From an uncultured bacterium (lineage in GTDB: Bacteria; Zixibacteria; MSB-5A5; JAABVY01; JAHJOQ01): a stretch of DNA of 22,696 nt. A program made the position numbers and the translations under genes. The notes under the pieces are model-generated. The model worked only from the letters and a program-made list of their open reading frames with translations. It was not told the DNA's origin and searched no databases. Shown here in pieces: positions 3,886 to 22,491 of this stretch (positions are counted from its first letter, which is position 1; each line of letters opens with the position of its first letter). The DNA lies in NCBI GenBank assembly GCA_965369655.1, contig CBDUQR010000041.1, forward strand, positions 1 to 22,696, given 5' to 3'.

Positions 3886-3937
3886 ACAGACATAGAAAAC
3901 TGGATCGAAAACCTGAATCAGGGATGGAATCTGTTAC

Positions 3938-4909
3938 ATGGCAGTAAGTGGGATTGGGATTATCACAAGCGGTGGTGATGCGCCTGGCATGAACGCATGC
4001 ATCAGGGCAGTCGTTCGCACAGCCCTTAAGAAGAAGATGGAGATCTACGGATACTTGCGCGGCTACTGCGGACTTATCGAGGATGACTTCATCACCCTCA
4101 AACGCTTCGCCGTCTCGAATATCATCCATACGGGCGGCAGCATCCTGATATCTTCGCGCAGCAAGGAATTCGAGACTGAAGAGGGTCGCCGCAAGGCTGC
4201 CGAGAATCTCGAAAAGCGTGGAGTGACCGGACTGGTTGTCATTGGCGGCAATGGCAGCATGACGGGAGCGCATCTCCTCGGACAGGAATCGGGCATCAGA
4301 GTCATCGGAGTGCCGGGAACTATCGACAGGGACATCTATGGCACCACGCAGACGATCGGATTCGACACGGCAGTAAACACCGCCCTCGAAGCGATCGACA
4401 GGATAAGGGATACTGCTTCGGCTATGGAGCGAGTATTCATTATCGAAGTAATGGGGCGCGACTCCGGTGACATAGCGTTGTATGCCGGTGTGGCGGGCGG
4501 CGCCGACGCCGTCCTCGTGCCGGAGATCAAGACGGACATCGGGGCGCTGATCGCAAATATCAAGCTTGGATTCGAGATCGGTAAGAAGACAAACCTGATT
4601 GTGGTCGCCGAGGGTCATGAGTCCGGTGGAGCGATTAAGCTCTCAGAAACGTTAAGCGCAAGCGGCATCAAGTCGTGGGTATCGATACTCGGCCACATTC
4701 AGAGAGGCGGTCGTCCGACAGTGCGAGACAGGTATCTCGCGACGGCATTCGGAGTGGCTGCGGTTAATGCGCTCGCCGACGGCATATCAGGAGTTATGAC
4801 CGGATGGGATGCGGGCGGAGGAATCAAGCATGTTCCGTTGAAGGAAACATATTCGAACAAGAAGGTATTCAGACCGAAAATCAGGGAGCTTCTTGAAGCG
4901 GTGAGTTGA
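3938..4909 (+). CDS. pfkA: ATP-dependent 6-phosphofructokinase
   Basis: 323 aa; TSGGDAPGMNA, GGNGS, PGTIDRD, IGFDTA, EVMGR, VAEG, LGHIQRGG. Gly at both donor-specificity positions indicates the ATP type. Confidence 0.95.
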   Translation: MAVSGIGIITSGGDAPGMNACIRAVVRTALKKKMEIYGYLRGYCGLIEDDFITLKRFAVSNIIHTGGSILISSRSKEFETEEGRRKAAENLEKRGVTGLVVIGGNGSMTGAHLLGQESGIRVIGVPGTIDRDIYGTTQTIGFDTAVNTALEAIDRIRDTASAMERVFIIEVMGRDSGDIALYAGVAGGADAVLVPEIKTDIGALIANIKLGFEIGKKTNLIVVAEGHESGGAIKLSETLSASGIKSWVSILGHIQRGGRPTVRDRYLATAFGVAAVNALADGISGVMTGWDAGGGIKHVPLKETYSNKKVFRPKIRELLEAVS

Positions 4910-4927
4910 CAGGTGCACGGAGGAGCG

Positions 4928-7513: not shown

Positions 7514-7529
7514 TCGCGCAATCAGATTT

Positions 7530-7832
7530 GTAGGTCAATCGGCCTGCCTGTCCTGAGCCTTGCGAAGGACCCGATTGACGAGTCCCGTAGGTCATGCCCG
7601 CTTGCAACGTCCTGAGTTTGGCGAAGGAGGGCGTGACATTCCGGTAATCCTCACGTCCCCATTCGTCAGGAAATTCTCACGCCCCGAGCGGGCGTGAGCT
7701 ACAAGAACTGGAGGAAGGAGGATCAGAGGGGGCACAGGACTCCTGATCTACGATCCTATCTGTGGAGGGCAGACGTCCTCGCAAAGTCCTGAGCCTCGAA
7801 GGACGAGTCCTGTGCTTCGAAGGGTCTGCCAC
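7530..7832. repeat. Cluster of GTAG/GTGG-tagged REP-like palindromes with inserted GA mini-hairpins
   Basis: GTAG-GTCAATCGG...CCGATTGAC (7530-7579); GTAG-GTCATGCCC...GGGCGTGAC (7587-7637); CTCACGCCC-cgagc-GGGCGTGAG-CTAC (7676-7702); TCCTGATCTAC (7741-7751); TGTGGAGGGCAGAC...GTCTGCC (7761-7830). Confidence 0.8.
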
Positions 7833-7932
7833 GCTGTAACGAACATTCGACTACCATTCCGCACAGCATCTATATATATTCACAGGCAACATACATCAAC
7901 CGACTCACCGTCGTCTGTCAGGAGTTGCAATT

Positions 7933-10068
7933 ATGAAGAAATGGATATTCCTCGTTTCACTGATCATTTTGATAGCCGCACAGGCATTGAATCCCGCCAT
8001 CGCAGCAGGACAAAGCAGTGCAGCCTATCCCGAAACAGCTATTATTGGGATCACAGATACGCTTCACGGAACGCCTGTGTACGATCCATACAGGTGGCTC
8101 GAAGACGGCAGCGATTCCTCAGTAATCGAGTGGACAAGGGCACAGAATGCTTACACCAGAGAAATCCTCGATGCGATTCCGGGACGTGACCGGCTGCAGG
8201 CTCGGATAGAGAAGGCGCTGAAGAAGCGCTGGATGTCGACGCCCAAAGTCGAGGGAAGCCGTCTCTTTCTGATGAGACAGTCTGAAATTCAGAATCAGCC
8301 GGTTCTCTACATGAGGGATGGAATCGAGGGTATTGAAATCGCGCTTGTCGATCCGAACAAACTGAGCAAACATGGCATCGCCTCGCTCGATTGGTATTTC
8401 CCTTCGCACGATGGGAAGCTCCTCGCGTACGGAGTTTCATGGAGCGGCGATGAGAATAGCACGCTCTACATACTTGATACCGACAACCTGACGCATCTCG
8501 ATGACACGATACCGAGGACCGGAGCGGCCAGCGTCATGTGGCTGCCCGATAACAGCAGCTTCTACTACACGAGATATCCGGCCAAAGGCGAGGTCCCGGA
8601 CGGCGAAGAAGTATACCATCGCCGGATATTCTATCACAAACTCGGGGATAATCCGCGCTCCGACAGAGAGGTATTCGGCGGCACGCTCGACATGCAGGAC
8701 TGGACAGACGTACATCTTTCGGAGTCCGGCAGATATCTTGTCGCATACGTCTTCAAGGGATGGAGCAAGACTGATCTCTATCTCGACGATCTGTCGACAG
8801 ATGAAGGCTTCGTTCCACTCGCTAAAGGCGAAAATGCCTACTTTGACGGGCTGTTTCTTGGCGAGGATTTCTACGTCCGTACAAATCACAATGCGCCAAA
8901 CTACAGGATACTGAAGGCGGATTTCGGAGGGAAAGATGTCTCCGAATGGAACGTGATTGTTCCAGAGGACCATAAGAGAACGTTGCAATCGTTTAGCATT
9001 GCTGCTGACCGAATTGCATTGACATATCTGGAGGATGTCTCCTCCCGGCTGATGATTATGGATCCTGCTACTGGCGATATTTCAGAAGTACATCTGCCGG
9101 GAATTGGCAATGTTGGATCTGTAAGAGGTGACATTCATGGCTCCGATGTTTTCTTCGCTTACACATCATTTATGAGTCCCCGGACAATATTCAGGTACGA
9201 TGTCGTCACAAACATTCTCGATCGATTCGATGGCGTCGAGGCGGACGTCGATCCATCGCTGTTCACCACTGAGCTTGCGCACTATGACTCGAAAGACGGT
9301 ACGCGCATTTCGATGTTCATCGTTCACAGAAAAGACCTGACGTTAGACGGCGACAATCCGACTATGCTGACCGGCTATGGCGGGTTCAACCACAGCCAGA
9401 CGCCCTACTTTTCGAGCACCCGTATGATGTGGCTGAATGCAGGCGGAGTATTCGCACTGCCTCACCTGCGAGGCGGAGGCGAATACGGTGAAAAGTGGCA
9501 TCAGGATGGTATGCTCAGCAACAAGCAGCATACGTTCGACGATTTCATGGCTGCTGCGGAATACCTTATCGATCATGGCTACACTAATTCCGACAGACTC
9601 GCGATCTGGGGCGGCTCCAACGGAGGGCTGCTGGTCGGCGCAGCGATGACTCAGCGCCCCGACCTGTTCCGCGTCGTGATATGCGGCAACCCGCTGCTCG
9701 ATATGATACGCTACCACATGTTCCTGATTGCGAAACTCTGGATTCCGGAGTACGGATCGTCGGACGACCCGCAGGGTTTCGAATGGCTCTATGGCTATTC
9801 GCCTTATCATCACGTGATCGATGGGGTGAATTATCCAGCTACCATGATTCTGACGTCCGATTCGGATTCGCGTGTCGATCCGCTGCATGCGAGAAAGATG
9901 ATCGCGAGGCTTCAGGCCGCGAATGCATCGTCGCATCCGCAACTCCTGAGGTTTGAATTCGAAGCGGGTCACGGCGCGGGCACGCCGACATGGAAACGCG
10001 CCGAACGTTACACCGACATCTATTCATTCATCGCAGAGCAGTTGCACATGCAACTCGTCGAGCAGTAG
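7933..10068 (+). CDS. Prolyl oligopeptidase (S9A) with N-terminal signal peptide
   Basis: MKKWIFLVSLIILIAAQA signal; DPYRWLED, GYGGF, RGGGEYG; catalytic Ser GGSNGG, Asp DSRV, His GHG; AGGAG RBS. Confidence 0.96.
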   Translation: MKKWIFLVSLIILIAAQALNPAIAAGQSSAAYPETAIIGITDTLHGTPVYDPYRWLEDGSDSSVIEWTRAQNAYTREILDAIPGRDRLQARIEKALKKRWMSTPKVEGSRLFLMRQSEIQNQPVLYMRDGIEGIEIALVDPNKLSKHGIASLDWYFPSHDGKLLAYGVSWSGDENSTLYILDTDNLTHLDDTIPRTGAASVMWLPDNSSFYYTRYPAKGEVPDGEEVYHRRIFYHKLGDNPRSDREVFGGTLDMQDWTDVHLSESGRYLVAYVFKGWSKTDLYLDDLSTDEGFVPLAKGENAYFDGLFLGEDFYVRTNHNAPNYRILKADFGGKDVSEWNVIVPEDHKRTLQSFSIAADRIALTYLEDVSSRLMIMDPATGDISEVHLPGIGNVGSVRGDIHGSDVFFAYTSFMSPRTIFRYDVVTNILDRFDGVEADVDPSLFTTELAHYDSKDGTRISMFIVHRKDLTLDGDNPTMLTGYGGFNHSQTPYFSSTRMMWLNAGGVFALPHLRGGGEYGEKWHQDGMLSNKQHTFDDFMAAAEYLIDHGYTNSDRLAIWGGSNGGLLVGAAMTQRPDLFRVVICGNPLLDMIRYHMFLIAKLWIPEYGSSDDPQGFEWLYGYSPYHHVIDGVNYPATMILTSDSDSRVDPLHARKMIARLQAANASSHPQLLRFEFEAGHGAGTPTWKRAERYTDIYSFIAEQLHMQLVEQ

Positions 10069-10082
10069 ATCGAGATATTGAA

Positions 10083-11267
10083 GTGAGCAGCTTACCCAAA
10101 GTGATTCTGATGTTTCCGGGCGTCGACTGGCCGATATTCATGTGCCGCCAGATGGTGATCGCGCTTGCCGAATCGGCCAGAGAGTATGGCATGACTCTGA
10201 TTGTCATGAATCGACCGCTCTGCCCTTTCTCAACACTTTTCAAAAAGCCAAAGAGGCTTCGAGAATTCATGTCAGCACCGAAAATCGAGAAACTCTCCGA
10301 CAACCTGTACATGGTCTCTCCGAAATACTTTATTCATGATTCTGTTGCGGGTAAATTCAGAATTCTCGAGAAACTGAATCTCGCCGCATTGAGACGAAGC
10401 TACGCGTACGTCTGCCGCAGGATCGGCATCATGGAAGAATCGCCTCTTGTCTGGTACTTCTACCCGCAGCAGAGCTATGTGATGAATCTCTTTCAGAATA
10501 GCCGCACTGTCTACGAAATGAAAGATAATCTCGCGGATGTCAAGGGTCGCGAACTGACGGCTCAGATCAGGTTGCAGAACGAGGCCAGGAGTCGCGTTGA
10601 TTTTCTCGTGACCACGTCGAAACTTCTCCACGAGAAATACTCCCCTGGGTACAGGAAAGCGATCGAATTCCGCAATGGCCTCGATCGAAAAACGTATCTT
10701 CGCCTTACGACTGATGATCCTGAGCCCATCGAAGCTATTGAAAAGATCGACAGACCTCGGATCGGCTTCGCGGGGGTCGTCTCGCAGCGATTAGACTGGG
10801 AACTTATCAGAAGGATTGCAGCAGGCAGGCCGAAGTGGAATCTTGTGTTCGTCGGTCCAACACCCGATAAATCGATCATCGAATCTGTGGTTACCTTGCC
10901 CAACATCCATTTCACGGGTGCTTTCGACCATTCCATGGTACCGTCTATCCTGAAGAGCTTCGACATCGGGATAATGCCATATTTCGATAACGAGTTTTTC
11001 AGGTACTCCAATCCGCTGAAATTCTACGAATACGCTGCAGCCGGAATTCGGACAGTGTCATCCGATATGAAAGAGCTGGAGACATTCCCCCGGAAGATAA
11101 TAAGAATCGTCCCGAACATCCCGTCCGAATGGATCGGCGCAATCGAGTTAATGCTCGCCTCTAACGCAGACGAAGCAAAACGTATCGATCAGGCATTTGC
11201 CGGCAAATTCATCTGGGAAGATCTCACAATAAAGCTGCTCAAGGAAATCACTGCCGAGATGGAATAG
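10083..11267 (+). CDS. GT-B glycosyltransferase (GT4-like, TuaH-type)
   Basis: RPRIGFAGVVSQRLDWELI, FDIGIMPY, NPLKFYEYAAAG. Start uncertain (GTG 10083 or ATG 10110); the ORF-track start at 9990 overlaps the peptidase gene. Confidence 0.85.
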   Translation: MSSLPKVILMFPGVDWPIFMCRQMVIALAESAREYGMTLIVMNRPLCPFSTLFKKPKRLREFMSAPKIEKLSDNLYMVSPKYFIHDSVAGKFRILEKLNLAALRRSYAYVCRRIGIMEESPLVWYFYPQQSYVMNLFQNSRTVYEMKDNLADVKGRELTAQIRLQNEARSRVDFLVTTSKLLHEKYSPGYRKAIEFRNGLDRKTYLRLTTDDPEPIEAIEKIDRPRIGFAGVVSQRLDWELIRRIAAGRPKWNLVFVGPTPDKSIIESVVTLPNIHFTGAFDHSMVPSILKSFDIGIMPYFDNEFFRYSNPLKFYEYAAAGIRTVSSDMKELETFPRKIIRIVPNIPSEWIGAIELMLASNADEAKRIDQAFAGKFIWEDLTIKLLKEITAEME

Positions 11268-11334
11268 CTTGCTGATGTATCACAGTCTGACGGAAAACCC
11301 AGGCATTCCCGACATTTTAGAAACCGATCGTACT

Positions 11335-11907
11335 CTAACTCCGGCGATCCAGCCCCCGCCAGATGGTCGGCAAGATAACGGCAGCGAGCCCAATCTTCAT
11401 GATCGCGCCCGGTATGAATGGGATTAGCCCTGCTGTCAGGAGAGCGGCTCCCGGTATGAACTGCGTGAGCCAGGTGAGACCGCACGCGAAGATAATCGCT
11501 GTTCCGAGAGTCATTGCCGCAACAGACTTGATATAACTCCCGGACCAGCCACGATCGGCAAGGTAGCCGACTATGTAAGCCGCAGCGAGAAATCCGATAA
11601 TGTATCCACCTGTCGGACCGGCAAGGGCAACAATCCCCGCCTTTCCGCCTGCGAATACCGGGAGTCCGACCATGCCCTCAAGCACGTATGCGCCCACTAC
11701 TGCCACAGCTCTCGTCCGATCAAGCGCCATCGCGATCAGCAGCACACCGAATGTCTGACCTGTGATTGGCACAGGCGAAAACGGAAGGTTTATGGCCATA
11801 TACGCAGTTGCTATCAGCAGCAGGTTGAAACCGATGAGAACAGGTATCTCTGCAATCAGACTCGACGGTTTGAAACGATTGTAGATCGATACGGAGTAAG
11901 CGGTCAT
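11335..11907 (-). CDS. bioY: Biotin transporter S component BioY
   Basis: 190 aa, hydrophobic; PVPITGQTFGVLL, GLPVFAGG, GPTGGYIIGF, GLIPFIPG; AAGGAG RBS. Confidence 0.95.
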   Translation of the reverse strand: MTAYSVSIYNRFKPSSLIAEIPVLIGFNLLLIATAYMAINLPFSPVPITGQTFGVLLIAMALDRTRAVAVVGAYVLEGMVGLPVFAGGKAGIVALAGPTGGYIIGFLAAAYIVGYLADRGWSGSYIKSVAAMTLGTAIIFACGLTWLTQFIPGAALLTAGLIPFIPGAIMKIGLAAVILPTIWRGLDRRS

Positions 11908-11984
11908 CAGGAACTCCTTTCTTGTTCACACAGAATTTGCTGAGAAACTAAGTCCCAGCGAATGATGGCGCAAGGTTTTTCAGA

Positions 11985-13688
11985 TCATTCGCGACAGATA
12001 CCATCGTACAGCTTTCGATAACTCTTGATAGCCCTATCCCAACTAAAACGTGAGAGCATCTTATAGCCGTGATAGATCATCTCGGCATATGCGTCCTGAT
12101 TGTCAGCATAGAGCGCGATTGCGTCTCTCAGCGCCGAACCGGCAGCTCGTGACATTTCGTTGAACAGCCCGATCTTCCTGCGGTCATCGAGACGATCGCC
12201 GACCGGCGTCTGATCCAGATAGTCGCAATCGACCATCTCCTGCCAGTCGTCGACTTCAGAAACCGAGTCCGGCTCTCTGAACAGAAATCCTGTCGGCTTG
12301 CTGCCTGAGCCGTGATACTCATCGACAATTTTTGAGCATGACGCGGGCAGACACGTCCTGTCAAACGGGAATACCTGCTGAATCAGCCCTCCGGTCGCGC
12401 GAGCTACTACCGGCATACCGGCGAGATATGCTTCGGTGGCTCCGCCGAACGGCTCATACAGTGAGCACATCACCATGAACGAACTGCCTTTCTGCAGTGC
12501 GGTAAACGCCTCGAAATCTACCCTGAACGGAAATACTATCACCTCACCGGGACGTTCTTCAGCCAATCGCTTCAGGAATCGCAACCCCTCGAAACCCTCG
12601 TCTCCCGGCATCGGAGTGAATACATACCTCGCAAGCCCTTTTGGTATCGAGGAGATTGCAGCGGCGGCGACGTCGTAACCCTTTTGCCTCGGATCATCCC
12701 TGCCGAGGAAGAAAAACACTGGCAGATTCGGATCGGACAGATCGATTCCGTCCCCCCAGACCTGCTGATCGGGTTCTAACCCATCTAAGCAATTGCCGAT
12801 AACCTCACCCAGGCGGATTCGACGTTCCTTCTTTTCGTCTCTGATCAACGAGAAATCTCCCGCCTCTGCCCTGGTCAGGGCATCTTGCGAAAACGGGAAG
12901 CTGAGTTCGCCGAACAGACCGTTGTCGACACCGATTATCGACTTCTCGCGAAAAAGCTCCTGCAGATGATCGGCGAAAACATCCGTGTGAAGAAATTCAT
13001 TGGTGAGTTCTCGGGCAAAATTTTCTGAAACAGTTGAGAGAGGACCATCGACCAGAGGGATCATTTTAGTCAGGATCGTCTCGCCAGGCAGGTTGCTCGC
13101 GGAGATCAGTCTCGCCGCCGTTTTGTCGAGCCCACGATCGTATGGGTTGTGCAGAGTCAGAAGACAGGCATGCGGTCCAAAATTACTGTCAAGTTTCGCG
13201 GTCTGTGCGACAGATGCAGACTCCCAGTCCTGAAGGTGCAGGACCATGTCGGACGACATGTCGAGGGCGCGCAGAGCAACAGGTACCGCTGAACAGAAGA
13301 AGAGCGAATCTTCGAGAAGCTGATCCGGATCACCCGGATTGATATATGGGTCCTTCGGAGCATTGAAGAAACGATCGGCCTCCAGCAAATAGTGCATGTA
13401 GCCCGAATCATCGCGGTGTTGAAGTATCCTGACAAGATTGGAGCTGCCGCCGAATTTCAGCTTAAACCTAATTCCCGTCTTACTGATTTGGGCGTTGATC
13501 GGTTTCTTCGATGTGATTTCGCTAAAGTATGGAGCTATCGTGCAGCATCGTTCGACCTTCGCAAGTTGTCTTGGCAACAGACGCATCACCGCCGCAAGCC
13601 CTCCACACGGTGCGAACTCAGTCTCGTATGTTACAAAGACAATGGTTCTCTTTGATTTGCTCGGTTTCGAAGAATCTATCTTAGTCAC
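11985..13688 (-). CDS. Divergent glycogen/starch synthase-like glycosyltransferase (GT5)
   Basis: FVTYETEFAPCGGL, HLQDW, TLHN, TVSENFA, DNG, GRDDPRQKGYD, SLYEPFG, ARATGGL, FSW. GTG 13688 has GGAGG upstream; the ORF-track ATG at 13742 lies in the predicted -10 box. Confidence 0.8.
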   Translation of the reverse strand: MTKIDSSKPSKSKRTIVFVTYETEFAPCGGLAAVMRLLPRQLAKVERCCTIAPYFSEITSKKPINAQISKTGIRFKLKFGGSSNLVRILQHRDDSGYMHYLLEADRFFNAPKDPYINPGDPDQLLEDSLFFCSAVPVALRALDMSSDMVLHLQDWESASVAQTAKLDSNFGPHACLLTLHNPYDRGLDKTAARLISASNLPGETILTKMIPLVDGPLSTVSENFARELTNEFLHTDVFADHLQELFREKSIIGVDNGLFGELSFPFSQDALTRAEAGDFSLIRDEKKERRIRLGEVIGNCLDGLEPDQQVWGDGIDLSDPNLPVFFFLGRDDPRQKGYDVAAAAISSIPKGLARYVFTPMPGDEGFEGLRFLKRLAEERPGEVIVFPFRVDFEAFTALQKGSSFMVMCSLYEPFGGATEAYLAGMPVVARATGGLIQQVFPFDRTCLPASCSKIVDEYHGSGSKPTGFLFREPDSVSEVDDWQEMVDCDYLDQTPVGDRLDDRRKIGLFNEMSRAAGSALRDAIALYADNQDAYAEMIYHGYKMLSRFSWDRAIKSYRKLYDGICRE

Positions 13689-13737
13689 CTGATACCGTCC
13701 TCCGTTATGAGTAACCACAAACAGAAATGACTCTGCG

Positions 13738-13768
13738 ATCATATACGAAACTGCAAACGCTGGGTCAA
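13738..13768 (-). promoter_or_regulatory. Putative sigma70 promoter for the GT5 gene
   Basis: TTGACC (13768-13763), then 17 nt to TATATG or 19 nt to TATGAT. Confidence 0.45.
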
Positions 13769-13872: not shown

Positions 13873-14301
13873 CTACTCACAGAATATCCGGACTTTTTCG
13901 TCCTCAGAATCGACATCGATGCTCATATCGGTGATGGCCTCGATCAGCGACTCAAGATCGCTCGACTTGAGATCTTTCAGATCGATCCCGATTCCCTTCT
14001 CCTTCAGCGCGTGATCAACCCTGCGATGAGCGCCATGAGGAATGATCGACCCGAGTTTTATCCCGGCGCGAATAAGCTGCAGGGGAACGCGGATATTGAC
14101 GTTCTCTCCGTTGCTCTTGCCTTCACCCGGAGTTACAACTACGCGCAGATACTTCGGAGCACCCGAACTCTCAACATGCTCGCCTCGTTTCTCGTCAGGT
14201 TTTTCGAGACCTCCAATTGCATCAAGCAATTCTTCTGCCTCTGCAAGGCTGATCTTACCTTCCTTCAGCATCGACAGGATTTTCATACGTTCTTCGCTCA
14301 T
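13873..14301 (-). CDS. SHOCT-like (YvlB/LiaX N-terminal type) domain protein, DUF2089-associated
   Basis: N-terminus EERMKILSMLKEGKISLAEAEELLDAI; C-terminal part with VNIRVPL and DEKVRIFCE; GAGGAGG RBS. Confidence 0.8.
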   Translation of the reverse strand: MSEERMKILSMLKEGKISLAEAEELLDAIGGLEKPDEKRGEHVESSGAPKYLRVVVTPGEGKSNGENVNIRVPLQLIRAGIKLGSIIPHGAHRRVDHALKEKGIGIDLKDLKSSDLESLIEAITDMSIDVDSEDEKVRIFCE

Positions 14302-14313
14302 TGGTATTCCTCC

Positions 14314-14595
14314 TCAGGAAATATCGATCAGTACTTCGTCATTTTTGTCTTTCATCTGGATCAGGAGCCCCCTCAGTGAGAAGATCACAACCATGACCCG
14401 CCAAATCTTCCGAAGAGCCTTTCTCACGGAACGGGAGCCGAGGCTCACGATTGCTGCGACCGCTGCGACGGGTGCAAATATCACGGCCACCACGACTGCA
14501 AGCGGCCAGAGTATTACGACCGGCAGCCAGAGCCGAATTCTTCTCCCTCCATTTTCGATCAAACGAATTCTCACAAACACCGGTGGAATCATCAT
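14314..14595 (-). CDS. Small hypothetical membrane protein of the DUF2089 operon
   Basis: 93 aa; IRLWLPVVILWPL plus a long hydrophobic stretch; ATGA overlap with the upstream gene and a 12-nt gap to the downstream gene. Confidence 0.75.
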   Translation of the reverse strand: MMIPPVFVRIRLIENGGRRIRLWLPVVILWPLAVVVAVIFAPVAAVAAIVSLGSRSVRKALRKIWRVMVVIFSLRGLLIQMKDKNDEVLIDIS

Positions 14596-14954
14596 TTCTT
14601 CAACCTCCCGACAGCCTCTTTGACCGAGATCTCACCGCGTTCGAGCTGATCGAGAACATCCGTGCTTTCTTCGGCAATCGATATGTCGACAAACCCGAGC
14701 CGCTCGGAAATCCGGTTGAGTCGGCTCTTGATTGTCGGATAGCTGACTCCGAAGAGCTTCTCCATCTGCTTGATCGAGCCGTGACTCCTGACAAAGGCAG
14801 CGACGAACACCTGGTCCTCCATCGCCAGCCGAGCCAGTGGTGGAAGCTCGAAATCTCCCTCAATCGCGATGCCGCTCCCGGTAAGCCTTACCCTTTCGAT
14901 CTTCACTGTGTCATCGCCTGTCATCCGGGTCAATTCCTGCCAATCTTTTGCCAA
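14592..14954 (-). CDS. DUF2089-family HTH protein with C-terminal SHOCT-like helix pair
   Basis: IEGDFEL, FVRSHGSIKQMEKLFGVSYPTIKSRLNRI, VLDQLERGEISVKEAV. TTG 14954 follows GGGAGG; ATG 14966 is the alternative start. Confidence 0.85.
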   Translation of the reverse strand: MAKDWQELTRMTGDDTVKIERVRLTGSGIAIEGDFELPPLARLAMEDQVFVAAFVRSHGSIKQMEKLFGVSYPTIKSRLNRISERLGFVDISIAEESTDVLDQLERGEISVKEAVGRLKK

Positions 14955-14967
14955 CTGACCTCCCATC

Positions 14968-15445: not shown

Positions 15446-15967
15446 TCATCGGCTGTTTCTGTCGTTCCTGATAAAATACTCGATGCAGTCTTTTCCACGT
15501 TCCGTCAATTCGTAGTAGGTGTGATTCCTGTGCTTGATCCACTTGTTGTCGACCACCCCTTTGCGATACCGGATCATCAGCTTTGGAACTCTCCTGAGAA
15601 ACCCCATGTCTCTGAGTTTGGCATGCCTGTCGAACACCTCCTGCTTATCGAGGTGGAGCAGCCTTGCGACCTTGTGCGAGTAATCGAGCCCTACTCTGAG
15701 ATGGAGCGCGAGTATTCTGAAGTCGTTTTCTTCCAGCGAGCGGTATGAATCGTCCGGTTTGAATTCGTCTCTTAAGAGTATATCATCCCAGGATAGATTG
15801 ATCAACCTCTCCTGCTCGGCATTTCGGAGATTTGGGCAGTCAGCGGCATGCAGCTTGATAATATCATCGCGGCTGTGGAAACCGACGACTGGCCGCTCGG
15901 GCGTCGGAGTGCAGCATTTGGCGAGAGCATACTCCGACCTGATCCTGAAATTCTGTTTAGCAGACAT
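15446..15967 (-). CDS. RelA/SpoT-type zinc-finger (RIS/ZFD) domain fused to a DUF2250-like winged helix
   Basis: aa 13-60: LAKCCTPTPERPVVGFHSRDDIIKLHAADCPNL...ERLINLSW. aa ~80-165: ILALHLRVGLDYSHKVAR...KLRDMGFLRRV...HRNHTYYELTERG. Confidence 0.75.
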   Translation of the reverse strand: MSAKQNFRIRSEYALAKCCTPTPERPVVGFHSRDDIIKLHAADCPNLRNAEQERLINLSWDDILLRDEFKPDDSYRSLEENDFRILALHLRVGLDYSHKVARLLHLDKQEVFDRHAKLRDMGFLRRVPKLMIRYRKGVVDNKWIKHRNHTYYELTERGKDCIEYFIRNDRNSR

Positions 15968-15975
15968 GCTTCAAT

Positions 15976-16004
15976 AATATAGCTGGTGGTCGCCTTGACA
16001 GCAA
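15976..16004 (-). promoter_or_regulatory. Putative promoter giving a leaderless or near-leaderless mRNA
   Basis: TTGCTG (16004-15999)-N17-TATATT (15981-15976), 8 nt before ATG 15967; no Shine-Dalgarno. Confidence 0.4.
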
Positions 16005-16021: not shown

Positions 16022-16930
16022 CTACTCAGTGAGTGGAATGACCAACCTACCAGGTTCGTTCACGGGCAGGTTGCCGATGAGAAGCGCCATGTCGCCACAG
16101 CCGGCTCCGGTCGGCTTGGCTCTGCCGCCGTGTTTGCGCGCCCACACGTCGAGTTCATCATGAACGGGCAACCAGTACTGAATCTTTGCCGCTTTTGCAC
16201 AATCACTCATGCGTGATACGAACAGATCGACGGCGTCGATCAACTCATCTGGAGGCGAGTCGAGCCAGAGCCGCGCAAGGTTGTCGGCTGACTCGATCAA
16301 CGAGGTAAGTCGGCGTTCTGCTTGCGCGCCGCCATCTTTCAGCCAATTCTCGAATTTCGTCACCATCTCGCGGGTGTCTGCGGGAACGCCTGTCCAGACA
16401 AGATTCAGGGTCGTCGAATGGCTGGAGTATTCGGCGACATTGATATCCACTCCTGACTCATCCCGCCTGAACAGAATCGGCTGTCTCAGAGCGCAGACGG
16501 CGACATCCGCACCGCTGCCGATTCCGCCCTGCACATGTCTGTGAATATGTTCAGCGTACGCGGCGACCTTCTCGATATTGTCATCCCACCTGAGTCCGGC
16601 CCGTTCAAATCTCAGCGCCACCACGCCGACAGCCTCAGCGGCTGAGAGGCCAAGCCCGAGTTTCGAGCGTGCGCCATCCGACTCGTGAAAAAACTGCGCA
16701 CTGTCGATTTCGAGTTTCAGTTCGCCATGATCTTTCTCGTACAGCTCCAATTCGGTTATCGGAAAGTCAACTGCGGCACGCACGATCTTCGTGTAGGCGT
16801 CCACATCGGCGCCAGAGGATTCGCGGGCTTCCAGATGTCTGGCAACTGGCAGCAGAGTCGCGGCGGCGCCGTGCAGTACAGCATATTCTCCCGACAGCAT
16901 CACTTTACCCGGTACACTGACTGATATCAT
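16022..16930 (-). CDS. Phosphomevalonate kinase (GHMP kinase, MvaK2-like)
   Basis: PGKVMLSGEYAVL, KLGLGLSAA, QGGIGSGADVA, KPTGAGCGD; ATG 16930 overlaps the mvaD stop (ATGA). Confidence 0.8.
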   Translation of the reverse strand: MISVSVPGKVMLSGEYAVLHGAAATLLPVARHLEARESSGADVDAYTKIVRAAVDFPITELELYEKDHGELKLEIDSAQFFHESDGARSKLGLGLSAAEAVGVVALRFERAGLRWDDNIEKVAAYAEHIHRHVQGGIGSGADVAVCALRQPILFRRDESGVDINVAEYSSHSTTLNLVWTGVPADTREMVTKFENWLKDGGAQAERRLTSLIESADNLARLWLDSPPDELIDAVDLFVSRMSDCAKAAKIQYWLPVHDELDVWARKHGGRAKPTGAGCGDMALLIGNLPVNEPGRLVIPLTE

Positions 16931-17898
16931 TCCCATTCGAGCACCTTGGATCCACCTGCCGGTTTTCCGATGAACGCCGAGTCGATTCCCGGCGCATTAC
17001 TAACTCGCTTCAGGACCCTGTCCAGATCACTCAGTCCGCACAGGAAGCAGACATTCGGACCCGCGTCGATTGTAGCATATGCGGCGATGCCGTCCGATCT
17101 GATCGCGCGCGCGAGTTCTATCAATCTCAATGTAGTTTCGTTCCAATACACTATCGACGGCCTCGTTGCGATCATACATGCGTGCATGGCGAGTGCGTTC
17201 GCCTCTGCGATCTCACCAACGACCTCGATGTCGAATTTGCGAAGTGCCGCGAGCATCGCTTTGTAGTCGCGCCTCGACTGATCGAGCCATGCCTTGAAAT
17301 AGGGAGAGTTTGTCTTGCAAAGCTTCATCGCCTCTCTCGATGAAATCTCTTTTTCGGATTTCCCTGCGATTGCGACGACCATTCCGAACTCGGCTCGATC
17401 CGGCGCGATGAGCAGCCTTGCCGCCGGATCGTTCCCTGTCGGCATAGCGGCTACCCCACCGACAATCGATCTTGCGGCTGAGCCGCTCCCGAGTCTGGCG
17501 AGACGGGACAGAGTCGATTCGCTGATGCTGGTTTCTGATAATTTGCCGAGCGCTGTTGCAAGAGCTGCGAAACCGGATGAACTCGATGCGAGTCCCGCAG
17601 CAGTCGGGAATTCGTTCGTTGATGATATTCTGACATGCCCTGTCAGCAGTCCTCTCTCTCTCCAGAGGTCGAGATAGTCCCTGATCCGCTGTGCGGCTAC
17701 TCTATCGGCGGACTTGCCATTCAATTCGATGCGATCGCGCTTTTCCCTGGTCTTGGTGACGACAGTCTCGGTGACGAGTGAATCGAGGGCAAGGGAAACC
17801 GATGATGTCGCCGGCAGGTTTCTAAGTTCATCCAGTTTGCCCCAGTATTTTATCAGTGCAATATTGGCGTAAGCTCGGGCCCTGACCCTGCGGATCAT
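16927..17898 (-). CDS. mvaD: Diphosphomevalonate decarboxylase
   Basis: ANIALIKYWGK, PTAAGLASSSSGFAA, RLGSGSAARS, TIDAGPN; ATGA overlap with the upstream gene. Confidence 0.93.
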   Translation of the reverse strand: MIRRVRARAYANIALIKYWGKLDELRNLPATSSVSLALDSLVTETVVTKTREKRDRIELNGKSADRVAAQRIRDYLDLWRERGLLTGHVRISSTNEFPTAAGLASSSSGFAALATALGKLSETSISESTLSRLARLGSGSAARSIVGGVAAMPTGNDPAARLLIAPDRAEFGMVVAIAGKSEKEISSREAMKLCKTNSPYFKAWLDQSRRDYKAMLAALRKFDIEVVGEIAEANALAMHACMIATRPSIVYWNETTLRLIELARAIRSDGIAAYATIDAGPNVCFLCGLSDLDRVLKRVSNAPGIDSAFIGKPAGGSKVLEWE

Positions 17899-20195
17899 AT
17901 TGTGGCTCCGAGAGTAAACGGGTAGATCAGCGCGAATTCACTGGAGAGCCGATCAAGCAATTCATACTGCATATCCGGCTCGACTACGGCCACTACCGCG
18001 CCGCCGCCACCTGCTCCGGTCAGTTTAGCGCCGAGCGCTCCGTTGTCGAGCAGGAGGTCAACAGCTTTGTCGAGTGTTCTCGTCGATATGCCAAGCTTTG
18101 CGAGAAGTGTATGGTTCTTTTCCATCAACCTGCCGCATTCCTTCGCGTCACCAGTGCCGAGAGCTATTCCGGCATCCACAGTGATATTGCCTATTTCGTC
18201 GAATATAGCATCCACCGTCTCAGGGTCGCGCTGGCGGTATCGTTTTACTTTTTCCACAAGCTCGATCGTACGCGCTCCCGGTTCCACAATGCAGACGATA
18301 CCGGCCATAGGTTTGGGCACGCGAATCGGCAGGATTTCTCTCGGCGGGCCTTTGCGGAACCAGATCACGCCGCCTGAGAGCACGGTAGCGGCATCCATGC
18401 CGCTCGGGTTGCCATGGAAAACCGATTCGAGCCGCTGAGCATCCTCGAACATGCGGCTGTTCCAATGGCTTTCAACATTGTTGCCTTTGTATTTTCTCAG
18501 GGCTTCGCAAAGTGCTACCGAAAATGAGGCAGATGATCCGAGGCCCATGCCGGGCACAAGATTCGACTCGACTTCGATAGCAATCGGTTCACTCTGTAAA
18601 CCGAAATGCTCGAGTGCGGCATCAGCGGCGCGTGAGAAGAGCCTGACGTCGCTGTCCGACGTCGGCACCGGAAACGCCTGCTTGAACTGCGGATTCAGGA
18701 ACCTCGGACCATGCGAATCGCTTTTGATCCTGACAGTCAGTCCGAGATCTATAGTCGTAATGATTCCAGGGTAGCCGTAAACAGTGGCGTGCTCGCCGAA
18801 CAGGACGACCTTGCCTTTTGCGAATGACTCGACAGGCAGATCGTGTTCTGGCTTCTCGACTACAGGCTGTCGGCACATTTTCCTGAATATCTCTTCAGCG
18901 GCCGATACTTTGACATCACCGCGTCTTATCATCTCCAGCGCGACCTTCTCGACATCATCCGGTGAGACTCCAACGCTCACAGCCACGCTTCTTGCATGCA
19001 GCGCCATGTGTCCCTTCTGGATGCCGACGGTGCAGAGCGCAAGGCAGGCCGCGAAATTCTGTGCCAGACCGACAGACGCCAGCAGGCCCGACAGCTCTCT
19101 GGAATTCTGTATACCGCTTATGGTCCTGAGAATCCTGACGCCGGGGTGAGAGTTGACCGCTCCGCCGACCCAGCCGACCTGGAGCGGGAGCTCAATCTCT
19201 CCCACGAGATTTTCGCCCTGTATTTCATATATGGCAAGCCCTCGATACTGACCGTCACGTGCCGCATAGGCATGTCCGCCAGCCTCGATGGCGCGCCAGT
19301 CCTGTCCAAGAGCAAGCGCCGCTGCGCCGATGCCGTTGAATATGCCCTTGTTATGGGTGGTTGCGCGGTACGGGTCGACTTCTGCGAATCTGCTGGCCTC
19401 GACCATTCTCTTTGCGACTTCGTGTCCCTGATCGGCGTCCGTTGATAGATGTTTCACGGGGAGACTGAACCTTGCGCGTGCGATTCGCCTGTCGGCGAAA
19501 TTGGACAGAATCCTGAGGTTGACGCGACCCCCCGTCAGTTTCTCGATAATCGGCCCGACCGCTTCGCACACGGTATTGACCGCATTCGCACCCATGGCTT
19601 CGCGGACGTCGCACAAGAGGTGGACTATCAGCATTCGGCCTATATCCCCACCGTCGAGAATACGGGTCTCGATATTCAGCACCCCGCCGCCTCGCGTCTT
19701 CATCTTTGGATCGGCGCTGTTTGCCGTATCCAGGATTTCATCTTTGTGATCGGACAATATGGCTGCGGCTTTTTCCGGGTCCTCCAGATCAAGCACCTGG
19801 ACCTGACCGATCATGATCGGATCGTCGACTGTCGAGTCGAATCCGCCCCCCTCCCGGATGAGCAATGCTCCCTTGGAGACGGCAGCGATGATCGAGGCTT
19901 CCTCGATTGCCATCGGGACAAGGTACTCCCTGCTGTCCACGACAAAATTCAGACCGAGGCCGAGCGGAAGACCAAACACTCCGACTGTGTTCTCAACCAT
20001 ATTCACGGCATGCTCTACTTTCAGGGCACTGCCGCCGCGCAATTGGGCTATTTGATCCTCTGTCAGATTGAATGCCCGAGCCAGAAACGCCAATCTTTGT
20101 TCTACCGATAGTCGATAAAATCCCGGGATTCGGGATGTTTTCCGATCCGGCGTGACGGTTACTTCGGTCTTCCTGACCAGTTTAGTCTTTTTCAT
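17895..20195 (-). CDS. Bifunctional class II HMG-CoA reductase / mevalonate kinase fusion
   Basis: HMGR part: SRIPGFY, ENTVG, EEASIIAA, EAMGAN, THNKGIFNG, GIQKGHMALH. MVK part: GKVVLFGEHATVYG, PGMGLGSSA, HGNPSGMD, KLTGAGGGG. Single frame, 766 aa from ATG 20195 (AAGAGG RBS). Confidence 0.92.
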   Translation of the reverse strand: MKKTKLVRKTEVTVTPDRKTSRIPGFYRLSVEQRLAFLARAFNLTEDQIAQLRGGSALKVEHAVNMVENTVGVFGLPLGLGLNFVVDSREYLVPMAIEEASIIAAVSKGALLIREGGGFDSTVDDPIMIGQVQVLDLEDPEKAAAILSDHKDEILDTANSADPKMKTRGGGVLNIETRILDGGDIGRMLIVHLLCDVREAMGANAVNTVCEAVGPIIEKLTGGRVNLRILSNFADRRIARARFSLPVKHLSTDADQGHEVAKRMVEASRFAEVDPYRATTHNKGIFNGIGAAALALGQDWRAIEAGGHAYAARDGQYRGLAIYEIQGENLVGEIELPLQVGWVGGAVNSHPGVRILRTISGIQNSRELSGLLASVGLAQNFAACLALCTVGIQKGHMALHARSVAVSVGVSPDDVEKVALEMIRRGDVKVSAAEEIFRKMCRQPVVEKPEHDLPVESFAKGKVVLFGEHATVYGYPGIITTIDLGLTVRIKSDSHGPRFLNPQFKQAFPVPTSDSDVRLFSRAADAALEHFGLQSEPIAIEVESNLVPGMGLGSSASFSVALCEALRKYKGNNVESHWNSRMFEDAQRLESVFHGNPSGMDAATVLSGGVIWFRKGPPREILPIRVPKPMAGIVCIVEPGARTIELVEKVKRYRQRDPETVDAIFDEIGNITVDAGIALGTGDAKECGRLMEKNHTLLAKLGISTRTLDKAVDLLLDNGALGAKLTGAGGGGAVVAVVEPDMQYELLDRLSSEFALIYPFTLGATI

Positions 20196-21288
20196 CGTTC
20201 CTCTTGATCCCTTCAGACCATCCATAGTACTGAAGCCATTCGCGAAGCTTCCCGGTGCATACATGTGGAGCTGTCGATAGTTGCTCTACGTTTACGGATC
20301 CGGTGAGAAGCATTGCGATTCTCAGTTCTTGTTTGATTCTGTCTATATACTCCGATGCACCGTCCGTTCCACCATCGAGAAACGATACCAGCACCGATCG
20401 TGCGAATCCTGCTATGTCCGCTCCGATGGCGATCGCACGGGCGGCATCCAGCCCGTTCTCGATCCCTCCCGAAGCGATAATTCGAGTCTGGTCGCCGCAG
20501 ACCTTCCGCGCGGCGATCACGCTGAACGCGGTCGGGATGCCCCAGTTGGAGAAAGTTCCGCCTATCCGCCTGAGAACACCCTGGTTTGCCCGGTACATTT
20601 CGACTTTGGTCCAGGATGTGCCCCCAGCTCCTGAAATATCGACGTACCTGACACCGAGAGATTTGAGTTTTTCTGCTGTCTGAGGCGATAGTCCTGCACC
20701 TGTTTCCTTGATTAGCACCCTGCCATGCATCTTCTCCATAAGATGCTCTATTGCGTTCATCAATCCCTTAAACCGGCGATGCCCTTCGCTCTGGACAAGT
20801 TCCTGCGCAGGGTTCAGATGCACACAGATGCCATCGGCCTCTATCCGGTCGACCAGATCGACAATTGTTTCGACCGGGTACTCCTCAAGTTGCACGGCCC
20901 CGATATTGCCGAGAAGCACGCCATCCGGGATATATTTTCGGACTGCGAAATGGTCGGAGACGTCAGGGTGTTTCAGCATAACTCTCTGGCTTCCGACAGC
21001 AAACGCGACGCCTTCTCTCGCGGCTGCCTGCGCAAGTCCCCGGTTCATTTCCTCGGAGAACTCCGCGCCCCCTGTCATACTCGTGATCATCAAAGGCGCA
21101 TCCAGAGTCTTGCCGAAGAAATCAGTCTTAAGATCGATCTCATCGAGGTCGAGTTCAGGCAGCGCCTGATGCAGAAGGTTGACGTCTTCGAGAAGCGTGC
21201 TGCCTGCGTGGACAACATCGTTGTCGGAGACAATCCGCAGGTGCTCGCTCTTGCGGCGTATAGTCTGGACCGCCGTGTTGTCGGTCAT
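20182..21288 (-). CDS. fni: Type 2 (FMN-dependent) isopentenyl-diphosphate isomerase
   Basis: RKSEH, ITSMTGG, VGSQR, HLNPAQE, KETGAG, GAGGTSW, WGIPT, ASGG. Start uncertain among several upstream ATGs up to 21333. Confidence 0.95.
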   Translation of the reverse strand: MTDNTAVQTIRRKSEHLRIVSDNDVVHAGSTLLEDVNLLHQALPELDLDEIDLKTDFFGKTLDAPLMITSMTGGAEFSEEMNRGLAQAAAREGVAFAVGSQRVMLKHPDVSDHFAVRKYIPDGVLLGNIGAVQLEEYPVETIVDLVDRIEADGICVHLNPAQELVQSEGHRRFKGLMNAIEHLMEKMHGRVLIKETGAGLSPQTAEKLKSLGVRYVDISGAGGTSWTKVEMYRANQGVLRRIGGTFSNWGIPTAFSVIAARKVCGDQTRIIASGGIENGLDAARAIAIGADIAGFARSVLVSFLDGGTDGASEYIDRIKQELRIAMLLTGSVNVEQLSTAPHVCTGKLREWLQYYGWSEGIKRNDEKD

Positions 21289-21519: not shown

Positions 21520-22491
21520 ATGTCACGAAAACGGATAACATCTATTATCGGGCTCCTGATGATGCTTGCGTTCGCGATTCTCGTGCTCGAAAGGCTCAGG
21601 CTGCCACATGATACACTACTTTGGCGCGAAATCCACGACTTTGGCCACACGCCGCTGTTCGGTATTATCGCGCTTATATACCTCGGATTGTCGCACACTG
21701 TGTTGAAAAAAATGGCGCCCAATTCGTTATGGCACTACGTGTTAGCGTTTCTGACGACTGTTGCGATAGGAGCAATCGCAGAGCTTAGCCAGATATTTCG
21801 GTCGAGAGACGCCGATGTCTGGGACTTGATAAGAGATATCGCTGGCGCATTAGGTTTTCTGGGATTGCACTGCTCAATACTCCGGGCGCGTACCTGCGAA
21901 ATAGCTCGGACAAAATTCCGTCGTTCGATTGTGGTGATAGTATCCATCGCAGTTCTGGTCGGTTCGGTTCTGCCTGTGACGATGTTAGGTATCGCGTACA
22001 AGAAAAGAGATGCAGCGTTTCCGGTTCTGTTGGATTATGAATCATGGTTCGAGAGCAGGTTCATCACAACTCAGAATGCTTCGCTCGATGTTGCAAAAGC
22101 TCCAAGTCATTTTTCTATTGCTTCCGGATCGCGTGTCGGCAGGCTTATTCTGTTCCCAGCGACATACTCCGGTTTCAGGATCGATGATCCGTATCCGGAC
22201 TGGTCAGGACATGATACTCTCCTGATAGACTTTTTCTCCGACGAGGATGCTATCATTCACCTGGTTCTGAGGATTGATGACCGACGTCACAATCAAAGCT
22301 ACGATGACCGCTTCAACTATTCGTTTCCAGTCCCACCGGGGATATCATCGATTCTTGTACCCCTTGATCGAATCAGGACTGCACCGGTGAAACGTGAGAT
22401 GCAGATGCAGGACATAGCAGCGATTCACATTTTTGCATTCGAAGCGACAGACACAGTGACACTATATATCGATGATATGAGACTGAAATGA
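21520..22491 (+). CDS. VanZ-like membrane protein with a C-terminal soluble beta-rich domain
   Basis: HDFGHTPLFG and ELSQIFRSRDADVWDLIRDIAG (VanZ-like), about 5 TM helices, then DWSGHDTLLIDF...LRIDD...LYIDDMRL. Confidence 0.75.
   Translation: MSRKRITSIIGLLMMLAFAILVLERLRLPHDTLLWREIHDFGHTPLFGIIALIYLGLSHTVLKKMAPNSLWHYVLAFLTTVAIGAIAELSQIFRSRDADVWDLIRDIAGALGFLGLHCSILRARTCEIARTKFRRSIVVIVSIAVLVGSVLPVTMLGIAYKKRDAAFPVLLDYESWFESRFITTQNASLDVAKAPSHFSIASGSRVGRLILFPATYSGFRIDDPYPDWSGHDTLLIDFFSDEDAIIHLVLRIDDRRHNQSYDDRFNYSFPVPPGISSILVPLDRIRTAPVKREMQMQDIAAIHIFAFEATDTVTLYIDDMRLK

Follow-up and report, generated by a model that had tools for sequence, protein, structure and literature searches.

Long RelA/SpoT homologue (RSH) enzymes carry a zinc-finger domain (ZFD), for which ZFD, CC, and RIS are names of one and the same domain (PMC7797070). 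In Escherichia coli RelA, the RIS core comprises amino acids (aa) 585-660, with a helix (638-647) that docks in the A-site finger's minor groove, as well as a sheet that packs on S19; RIS and ACT together hold RelA on the 70S ribosome at bridge B1a, and A-site tRNA is not needed for this (PMC4974054). The contact between the A-site finger and the ZFD has been described as key to RelA binding and activation (PMC5829649), and Bacillus subtilis Rel devoid of RRM and ZFD loses activation by A-site tRNA and shows increased hydrolysis (PMC7797070). As far as these sources describe it, the ZFD is known solely as the ribosome anchor of RSH enzymes (PMC4974054, PMC5829649). The gene considered here, located on contig CBDUQR010000041.1 (assembly GCA_965369655.1) of an uncultured Zixibacteria bacterium, encodes a small protein in which such a domain is followed by a DUF2250 winged helix. 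The whole stretch of DNA that was analysed, 22,696 nucleotides (nt) in length, is referred to as the window.

Domain architecture

The gene is a minus-strand open reading frame (ORF) of the window's ORF list, with an ATG start and a product of 173 aa (Table 1). The protein is a conserved two-module fusion in which a DUF2250 winged helix follows a RelA-type zinc finger. Synthetase, hydrolase (HD), TGS, ACT, and RelA_SpoT domains gave no match in the 173-aa protein in Pfam and NCBIfam, in agreement with an earlier note which, from the sequence alone, had reported neither synthetase nor hydrolase, TGS, or ACT. Conservation was assessed with two alignments, one of 72 relatives (A1) and the other of 52 sequences taken from genome loci (A2).

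Judged by sequence and predicted fold, aa 12-63 is a true RSH ZFD/RIS, and Zn binding is predicted. The translation shows C18, C19, 20 residues, H40, 3 residues, and C44, which is the spacing (C18-C19-x20-H40-x3-C44) from which the earlier note had recognized an RSH ZFD/RIS at the N-terminus. The NCBIfam model spoT_relA (TIGR00691) matches aa 12-62 at model positions 554-605 of 687 (E 5.3e-9), the total score being 35 bits against a cut-off of 499.2 and the match being confined to the ZFD stretch; the same residues are matched by the NCBIfam equivalog models of E. coli RelA and SpoT. When an A1 profile was compared with the PDB, aa 12-63 were matched to B. subtilis Rel on the ribosome (6htq_x, E 6.5e-10), mycobacterial Rel (8fr8_I), E. 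coli RelA (5kps_A, 5iqr_8, and 5l3p_z, E ~5e-7), and SpoT (7qpr_A, E 0.005), with C18/C19 falling on the RelA CC pair and H40/C44 on RelA HRADC. Residues C18, C19, P21, H40, C44, and W60 are invariant in both alignments (72/72 in A1 and 52/52 in A2), and this conservation excludes a chance resemblance. By profile alignment, the docking helix of RelA corresponds to C44-R54 of the fusion, in which N46 and L47 are conserved in at least 90% of the sequences and R54 is invariant (A1); the whole stretch C44-x-N46-L47...R54-L55 is invariant or at least 90% conserved in the fusion family and follows the RSH consensus.

Structural modeling and precomputed annotation point in the same direction. An AlphaFold2 (AF2) model of aa 1-68, generated from A2 with a predicted local distance difference test (pLDDT) value of 84.8, contains strands 13-15, 27-31, 37-41, and 55-58 and a helix at 45-49. 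The comparison with RelA/Rel ZFDs by AlphaFold and Foldseek that the earlier note had proposed returned exclusively RelA, Rel, Rsh, or SpoT ZFDs at ranks 1-9 in the PDB, with query-normalised TM scores of 0.58-0.63 and root-mean-square deviations of 1.8-4.1 Å over 50-59 columns, and an E value of 1.9 at rank 10. Furthermore, the precomputed Pfam family PF28438, named RelA_RIS (Pfam 38.1) in the output of ESM Atlas, is present on 120/120 listed fusion relatives (of 318) and on 120/120 listed long RSHs that were retrieved with the ZFD region of the genome's own RSH. Homologs thus retain both the CC/H/C ligands and the fusion itself, both Pfam families being found on all 120 listed relatives.

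For aa 80-170, sequence profiles and structural models indicate a DUF2250 winged helix of the PadR/MarR type, with predicted nucleic-acid binding. Pfam DUF2250 (PF10007), a family whose Pfam text reads 'conserved in archaea', matches aa 81-162 at model positions 9-90 of 93 (40.3 bits against a cut-off of 24.4, E 3.6e-10), and the fusion protein is the sole PF10007 match in the window's genome. The C-terminal motifs include D95-Y96...A101, LRDMGFLRRV (L118-V127), and HRNHTYYELTERG (H146-G158); the earlier note had described a DUF2250-like winged helix with DY...A, LxxMGFLRRV, and HxxHTYYELTxxG, a description that the translation, the PF10007 match, and the AF2/Foldseek results all confirm. In the full-length AF2 model (pLDDT 86.5, predicted TM score 0.62), the C-terminal half comprises helices 80-92, 97-104, and 108-120, strands 124-127, 131-133, 143-145, and 151-154, and a final helix 156-172, with low confidence in the wing loop aa 134-142. 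Foldseek returned 29 PDB matches at E <= 0.001, nearly all of them winged helix-turn-helix (wHTH) regulators, and placed aa 80-170 on MarR-family proteins, AspA (4rs8, 5k5q), and other wHTH proteins (E ~3e-4, TM up to 0.82 when normalised to AspA). PadR profiles on the wing remain below their cut-offs (Pfam PadR, 12.8 vs 27 bits; NCBIfam PadR equivalog, 13.3 vs 112), and in ESM Atlas aa 75-173 fall into generic MarR-like clusters only (0.90-0.91). Prediction of a homodimer from two copies of the A1-based chain gave a score of 0.00, which offers no verdict and was used neither for nor against any reading.

In the wing, the WIKHRNHTY segment (W143-Y151) is invariant in all 72 relatives of A1, and within it K, H, N, H, T, and Y remain unchanged in 8/8 distant DUF2250 proteins, including stand-alone ones. 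In addition, H89, H115, H146, and H149 are each invariant in 72/72 relatives, with H146 and H149 likewise invariant in distant stand-alone DUF2250 proteins; these four histidines may make up a surface for nucleic-acid contact or, alternatively, a second metal site.

Distribution, origin, and relation to the resident RSH

The distribution and a ZFD tree indicate that the fusion has a single origin and is inherited vertically across the phylum as a single-copy gene. A word-indexed search identified 318 relatives among 337 candidates, the named ones being 'DUF2250 domain-containing protein' of Zixibacteria or GN15. A diverged relative is labelled Candidatus Poribacteria. For 269 of the 299 stretches matched by pattern in GTDB species genomes, the encoded protein is a relative, and the record titles of the carriers are mostly Zixibacteria, with some Ignavibacteriales, Calditrichota, and the FCB group. 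In a sample of Zixibacteria genomes that are at least 90% complete, the DUF2250 half (E <= 1e-10) was detected in 87/151, always in single copy, and presence is mostly all-or-none by family (e.g., 15/15, 10/10, and 8/8 vs 0/13 and 0/11). The survey of the architecture suggested by the earlier note therefore reveals a conserved family (318 relatives; 87/151 Zixibacteria genomes). In a sample of 41 close-relative genomes, 18 contain the full-length fusion gene. A FastTree phylogeny was computed over ~55 ZFD columns from 72 fusion sequences, 40 Zixibacterial RSHs (taken as every third of 120), and 126 other search matches; 72/72 fusion ZFDs fell into a single clade (support 0.87) distinct from that of the RSHs (0.94), a separation that is only indicative given the short alignment.

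The window's genome (99.5% complete, 100 contigs) encodes one complete long RSH of 722 aa on another contig (C55), which scores 781.8 bits with TIGR00691 over positions 1-685 and whose own ZFD is 42% identical to aa 13-62 of the fusion. Because this RSH is complete and retains its ZFD, the fusion does not represent a piece of the stringent factor, and the earlier description of a stand-alone protein is borne out. In the 41-genome sample, the fusion is accompanied in every case by a long RSH that carries a separate ZFD, and long RSHs are equally present in the fusion-free genomes; fusion and long-RSH ZFDs of the same sample share 33-47% identity over aa 13-61. Longer fused forms (304-2000 aa) were sought by a word-based search in which 0/423 candidates scored, which is weak evidence. 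An unrestricted search of 1.84 billion representatives yielded 267 matches at E <= 0.001; among the best 150, the full-length ones are only proteins of ~170-185 aa and fragments, many ZFD-only ones are long RSHs or pieces thereof, and both halves are matched by none that exceeds ~200 aa.

That the gene is a decayed or mis-called part of an RSH, lacking its own function, can be ruled out with near certainty on the basis of the intact frame in 318 relatives and the invariant ligands and wing. Single copy number, family-consistent presence, the complete 722-aa RSH elsewhere in the genome, and the lack of a longer fused form in the searches above also contradict it, the sole point in its favor being the JGI name '(p)ppGpp synthase/HD superfamily hydrolase' given to two relatives.

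Possible functions

The earlier note had put forward a ribosome- or RSH-linked regulator. By analogy with RelA, the fusion may be a regulator that docks on the ribosome at the anchor site of RelA, our preferred but tentative reading, to which we assign a likelihood a little short of even. According to this model, the RIS module would keep its only known activity, i.e., docking at the 70S inter-subunit bridge B1a, with the 23S A-site finger (H38) accommodating its short helix in the minor groove and uS19 packing against its sheet, and the winged helix would take the place of the RRM/ACT of long RSHs and provide a second contact. Non-rotated ribosomes would then carry the protein at the anchor place of the cell's own Rel, where it might compete with Rel or be held until released to another target, thereby coupling translation state to regulation. 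Support comes from the ZFD homology found by three profile sources together with Pfam RelA_RIS on the fusion and on long RSHs, from the fact that the aa 1-68 model matches only RSH ZFDs in the PDB, from the established role of the ZFD in ribosome anchoring, and from the conservation of the docking-helix stretch C44...L55 in the fusion family. Moreover, the wing motif is invariant far beyond the phylum, for which a universally conserved target would be a better fit than variable operators.

A further argument for docking is offered by P0225, a 220-aa protein from the unrestricted protein search that joins DUF2250 (aa 120-205) to a module resembling release factor RF1. Its N-terminus matches RF1 domain 1 (Pfam PCRF, 25.5 bits against a cut-off of 24, aa 24-111) and positions 3-103 of 361 in TIGR00019 prfA (E 8e-7). 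If real, this second fusion would mean that DUF2250 has on two occasions been combined with a module from a ribosomal A-site factor. A single-sequence PDB search with P0225 gave nothing useful, and no P0225 locus was found in two metagenome scans. On this basis, a broader proposal can be formulated, which we consider rather unlikely: DUF2250 would be a ribosome-directed winged helix joined at least twice to A-site factor modules, and in the Zixibacteria protein the RelA anchor site at B1a would have its first stand-alone user, a small factor reading or blocking that site and thereby tuning the stringent response or tying DNA/RNA binding to ribosome state.

Several observations count against ribosome docking. 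The helix that docks at the A-site finger is poorly conserved among RSHs themselves, so that its conservation in the fusion is no proof of the same partner. A ZFD on its own is deprived of the TGS, helical, and RRM contacts that contribute to holding RelA on the ribosome. The winged helix most resembles the DNA-binding proteins MarR, PadR, and AspA, and most bacterial proteins of this wHTH type are transcription factors. A divergent DUF819 gene, present in 30/51 loci, constitutes a layout typical of local transcription factors. The fusion is missing from 64/151 sampled Zixibacteria genomes and hence is not a core translation factor. Finally, the P0225 fusion is represented by one 50%-identity representative of a 4-member cluster, with modest scores over a helical charged stretch.

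The main alternative is that the protein is an ordinary sequence-specific transcription factor, a serious possibility although on balance doubtful, in which DUF2250 would bind an operator, probably as a dimer, and the zinc finger would be an accessory with no ribosome link, serving as a second DNA contact, a dimerisation or partner surface, or a thiol/zinc sensor. Such a role is favored by the structural match of aa 80-170 to MarR-family proteins, AspA, and other wHTH proteins that bind DNA, by the weak PadR matches over the wing, by the labelling of stand-alone DUF2250 proteins as 'predicted transcriptional regulator' by their sources, and by the divergent upstream DUF819 gene. The latter family was found in 12/18 fusion genomes vs 5/23 genomes without the fusion, but this co-occurrence was treated as weak because the 41 genomes are kin and non-independent. 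On the other hand, 120 nt of upstream sequence from 52 loci share no palindrome or word except TATATT, the neighbors change by lineage (mevalonate genes, GlnA, nitroreductase, or RluD upstream), and DUF4953 was not found in the window's genome. In addition, the N-terminal domain has no known DNA-binding relatives, its structural matches being RSH anchors only.

It has also been considered that the protein modulates the resident Rel by mimicry, the free ZFD replacing that of Rel in intramolecular contacts and shifting the synthetase/hydrolase balance, with the winged helix reporting to this contact or being controlled by it. The co-existence of a long RSH in all fusion genomes of the 41-genome sample and the 33-47% identity between the two kinds of ZFD would be in line with this idea, as would the shift of B. 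subtilis Rel towards hydrolysis upon deletion of RRM and ZFD, which implicates the ZFD in intramolecular control (PMC7797070). We nevertheless regard mimicry as very unlikely, given that long RSHs are equally frequent in genomes without the fusion and hence do not co-vary with it, that no Rel gene adjoins the fusion in 51 loci, and that the separate clade of the fusion ZFDs suggests long independent evolution rather than mimicry kept in step.

Novelty and significance

The fusion represents an unstudied combination of a known ribosome-anchor domain and a known wHTH family. The earlier note knew of no described system of this kind, and no paper describing the fusion was found in the literature searched, with the supplementary tables of RSH surveys, which might list the architecture, lying outside that search; however, the architecture itself has already been labelled automatically, with RelA_RIS and DUF2250 assigned to these proteins in Pfam 38.1 and a 260-member ESM Atlas cluster named 'DUF2250/RelA/SpoT RIS domain-containing protein'. 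The mentions of DUF2250 in the literature searched are not about function (one is a table entry for Methanoperedens plasmids), and 'PF10007' retrieves Plasmodium gene names only.

A conserved protein that keeps the ZFD alone together with a winged helix is a natural minimal system for studying what the ZFD binds by itself, and could reveal if Rel faces competition from other factors for bridge B1a and the A-site finger. In addition, DUF2250, a family without a known role in archaea and bacteria, would gain a first functional handle. Should the protein be a plain transcription factor, the outcome would be more modest, i.e., a new accessory domain on a PadR/MarR-like regulator of an uncultured phylum.

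Genomic context

No neighbor is a firm functional partner of the fusion gene, and its surroundings vary by lineage. In the window, the end of a mevalonate-pathway cluster lies upstream on the same strand, separated by a 54-nt gap; according to Pfam and NCBIfam, this cluster consists of genes for a type-2 IDI-like protein, an HMG-CoA reductase-GHMP kinase fusion, a diphosphomevalonate decarboxylase, and a phosphomevalonate-kinase-like GHMP kinase. This adjacency holds in 4/4 relatives of the window's taxonomic family and in 0/7 loci of other families. Neighborhood frequencies were obtained from 54 of 80 loci, picked by eye for their flanks, of which 51 gave the target ORF; none of these has a Rel gene adjacent to the fusion, and the recurrent neighbors are included in Table 1. 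The arrangement with RluD also occurs in 4/7 other-family loci of a separate genome search (L009, L011, L013, and L015). DUF4953 was rejected as a functional partner, since it is present in only 3/18 fusion genomes vs 12/23 without the fusion and was not found in the window's genome. The Met-zincin beside the fusion is ~890 aa long, and a PCMT gene often lies beyond DUF819 (e.g., L021, L023, L024, L028, L035, and L038).

Further genes of the window may be mentioned briefly. The apparent HMG-CoA reductase-mevalonate kinase fusion is a 789-aa ORF (17895-20264, minus strand) with a complete HMG-CoA reductase at aa 54-424 and GHMP kinase N and C domains at aa 542-777. Downstream of the fusion gene, three small co-directional ORFs (13873-14966, minus strand) encode a DUF2089 HTH protein of 124 aa, a 93-aa protein without a family, and a 142-aa protein whose N-terminal domain is a SHOCT-like DUF2089-C. 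The region 2266-13742 is a carbon-storage/glycolytic gene run that includes PEP carboxykinase, phosphofructokinase, a DUF3417-type alpha-glucan phosphorylase, and two glycosyltransferases (one with a starch-synthase catalytic domain), with a prolyl oligopeptidase and BioY among them. On the plus strand, a 323-aa ORF (21520-22491) has no Pfam or NCBIfam match.

Table 1. Features of the fusion gene and its product in the window, and recurrent neighbors of the gene in other loci
Feature	Position	Strand or orientation	Basis or frequency
Coding sequence of the RIS/ZFD-DUF2250 protein, stop included	15446..15967	(-)	ORF list; 318 homologues of similar length
RelA/SpoT-type zinc-finger domain (ZFD = RIS = CC), aa 12-63	15779..15934	(-)	TIGR00691, PDB profile matches, AF2 + Foldseek, invariant ligands
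Predicted Zn ligand codons C18, C19, H40, and C44	15914-15916, 15911-15913, 15848-15850, and 15836-15838	(-)	
Acidic linker, aa 64-79 (P71 and D82 region conserved)	15731..15778	(-)	Alignment A1; lower pLDDT in the 61-70 block
DUF2250 winged helix-turn-helix, PadR/MarR type, aa 80-173	15449..15730	(-)	PF10007 above cut-off; AF2 secondary structure; Foldseek
Predicted recognition helix aa 108-120, extended wing aa 124-154, and C-terminal helix aa 156-172, within the DUF2250 half			AF2 model
Wing motif W143-I-K-H-R-N-H-T-Y151	15515..15541	(-)	72/72 relatives identical
Promoter-like CTGTCA, 16 nt, TATTAT (overlaps TATATT 15976-15981)	15974..16001	(-)	Consensus scan
GHMP-kinase (phosphomevalonate-kinase-like) gene, last of the mevalonate cluster	16022..16936	(-)	Pfam, NCBIfam
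DUF819 membrane protein	upstream	divergent	30/51 loci
DUF5117/DUF4953 Met-zincin	downstream	co-directional	22/51 loci
DUF819 and DUF5117/DUF4953 together	upstream and downstream, respectively		20/51 loci
GlnA	upstream		7/51 loci
Nitroreductase	upstream		5/51 loci
RluD-like pseudouridine synthase and TldD/PmbA	upstream and downstream, respectively		2/51 loci

Promoter-like element before the start codon

Upstream sequence suggests that the gene is transcribed from its own promoter as a leaderless or nearly leaderless mRNA, even where it abuts an upstream operon. The TATTAT hexamer of the promoter-like element ends at 15974, 6 nt ahead of the A of the ATG at 15967. Across loci, TATA[AT]T ending 5-9 nt before the start codon was observed in 24/52 (window included) vs 6/188 neighboring genes with crude start calls, and 25 of its 36 occurrences in 180 nt upstream fall within the last 10 nt; several other loci show looser TAnnnT forms by eye. 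In k-mer counts over 120 nt, TATATT is the sole upstream word clearly above shuffles (31/52 loci against a shuffle maximum of 14), and no conserved palindrome or operator was detected across the 52 loci. The position of this -10-like element, 5-9 nt before the start, leads to the prediction of a leaderless mRNA. A GACAAY word near -55 in ~11 loci resembles a -35 region, presumably that of the divergent DUF819 gene. Public runs containing this stretch are DNA runs only, labelled marine sediment metagenome.

Comparison with known systems

The closest relatives of the N-terminal module are the ZFDs of RSH enzymes such as E. coli RelA (aa 585-660) and B. subtilis Rel, with which it has in common the Cys-Cys...His-x3-Cys ligands, the core motifs A-x-CC-x-P, I-x-G-[FY], H-x-x-D-C-x-N, and R-L...W, and the same predicted fold of four strands plus a short helix. 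In contrast to the RSH domain, the ZFD of the fusion is located at the N-terminus of a 173-aa protein devoid of synthetase, hydrolase, TGS, helical, and RRM/ACT domains, and the T-x-G-x-G hairpin of RSHs is replaced by S-H-D.

With respect to the C-terminal module, stand-alone DUF2250 proteins from archaea and, according to source labels, the bacteria Athalassotoga, Mesoaciditoga, and Desulfurella share with the fusion the wing K-H-x-N-H-T-Y-Y-x-L-[TS]-x-x-G, but they are only 85-114 aa long and lack the zinc finger. PadR/MarR repressors and the PadR-like centromere binder AspA of pNOB8 (4rs8, 5k5q) share the wHTH fold and a C-terminal helix after the wing, and in weak profile matches the PadR wing aligns with Y-Y-x-L-T-x-x-G of the fusion; their identity to the fusion is 14-27%, and the fusion wing is longer, with an extra strand pair. 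At the level of architecture, the ZFD-RRM order of RSHs is paralleled by the fusion, in which a zinc finger is followed by a nucleic-acid-binding domain of ~90 aa as predicted; this second domain is a winged helix in the fusion and an RRM/ACT fold in RSHs.

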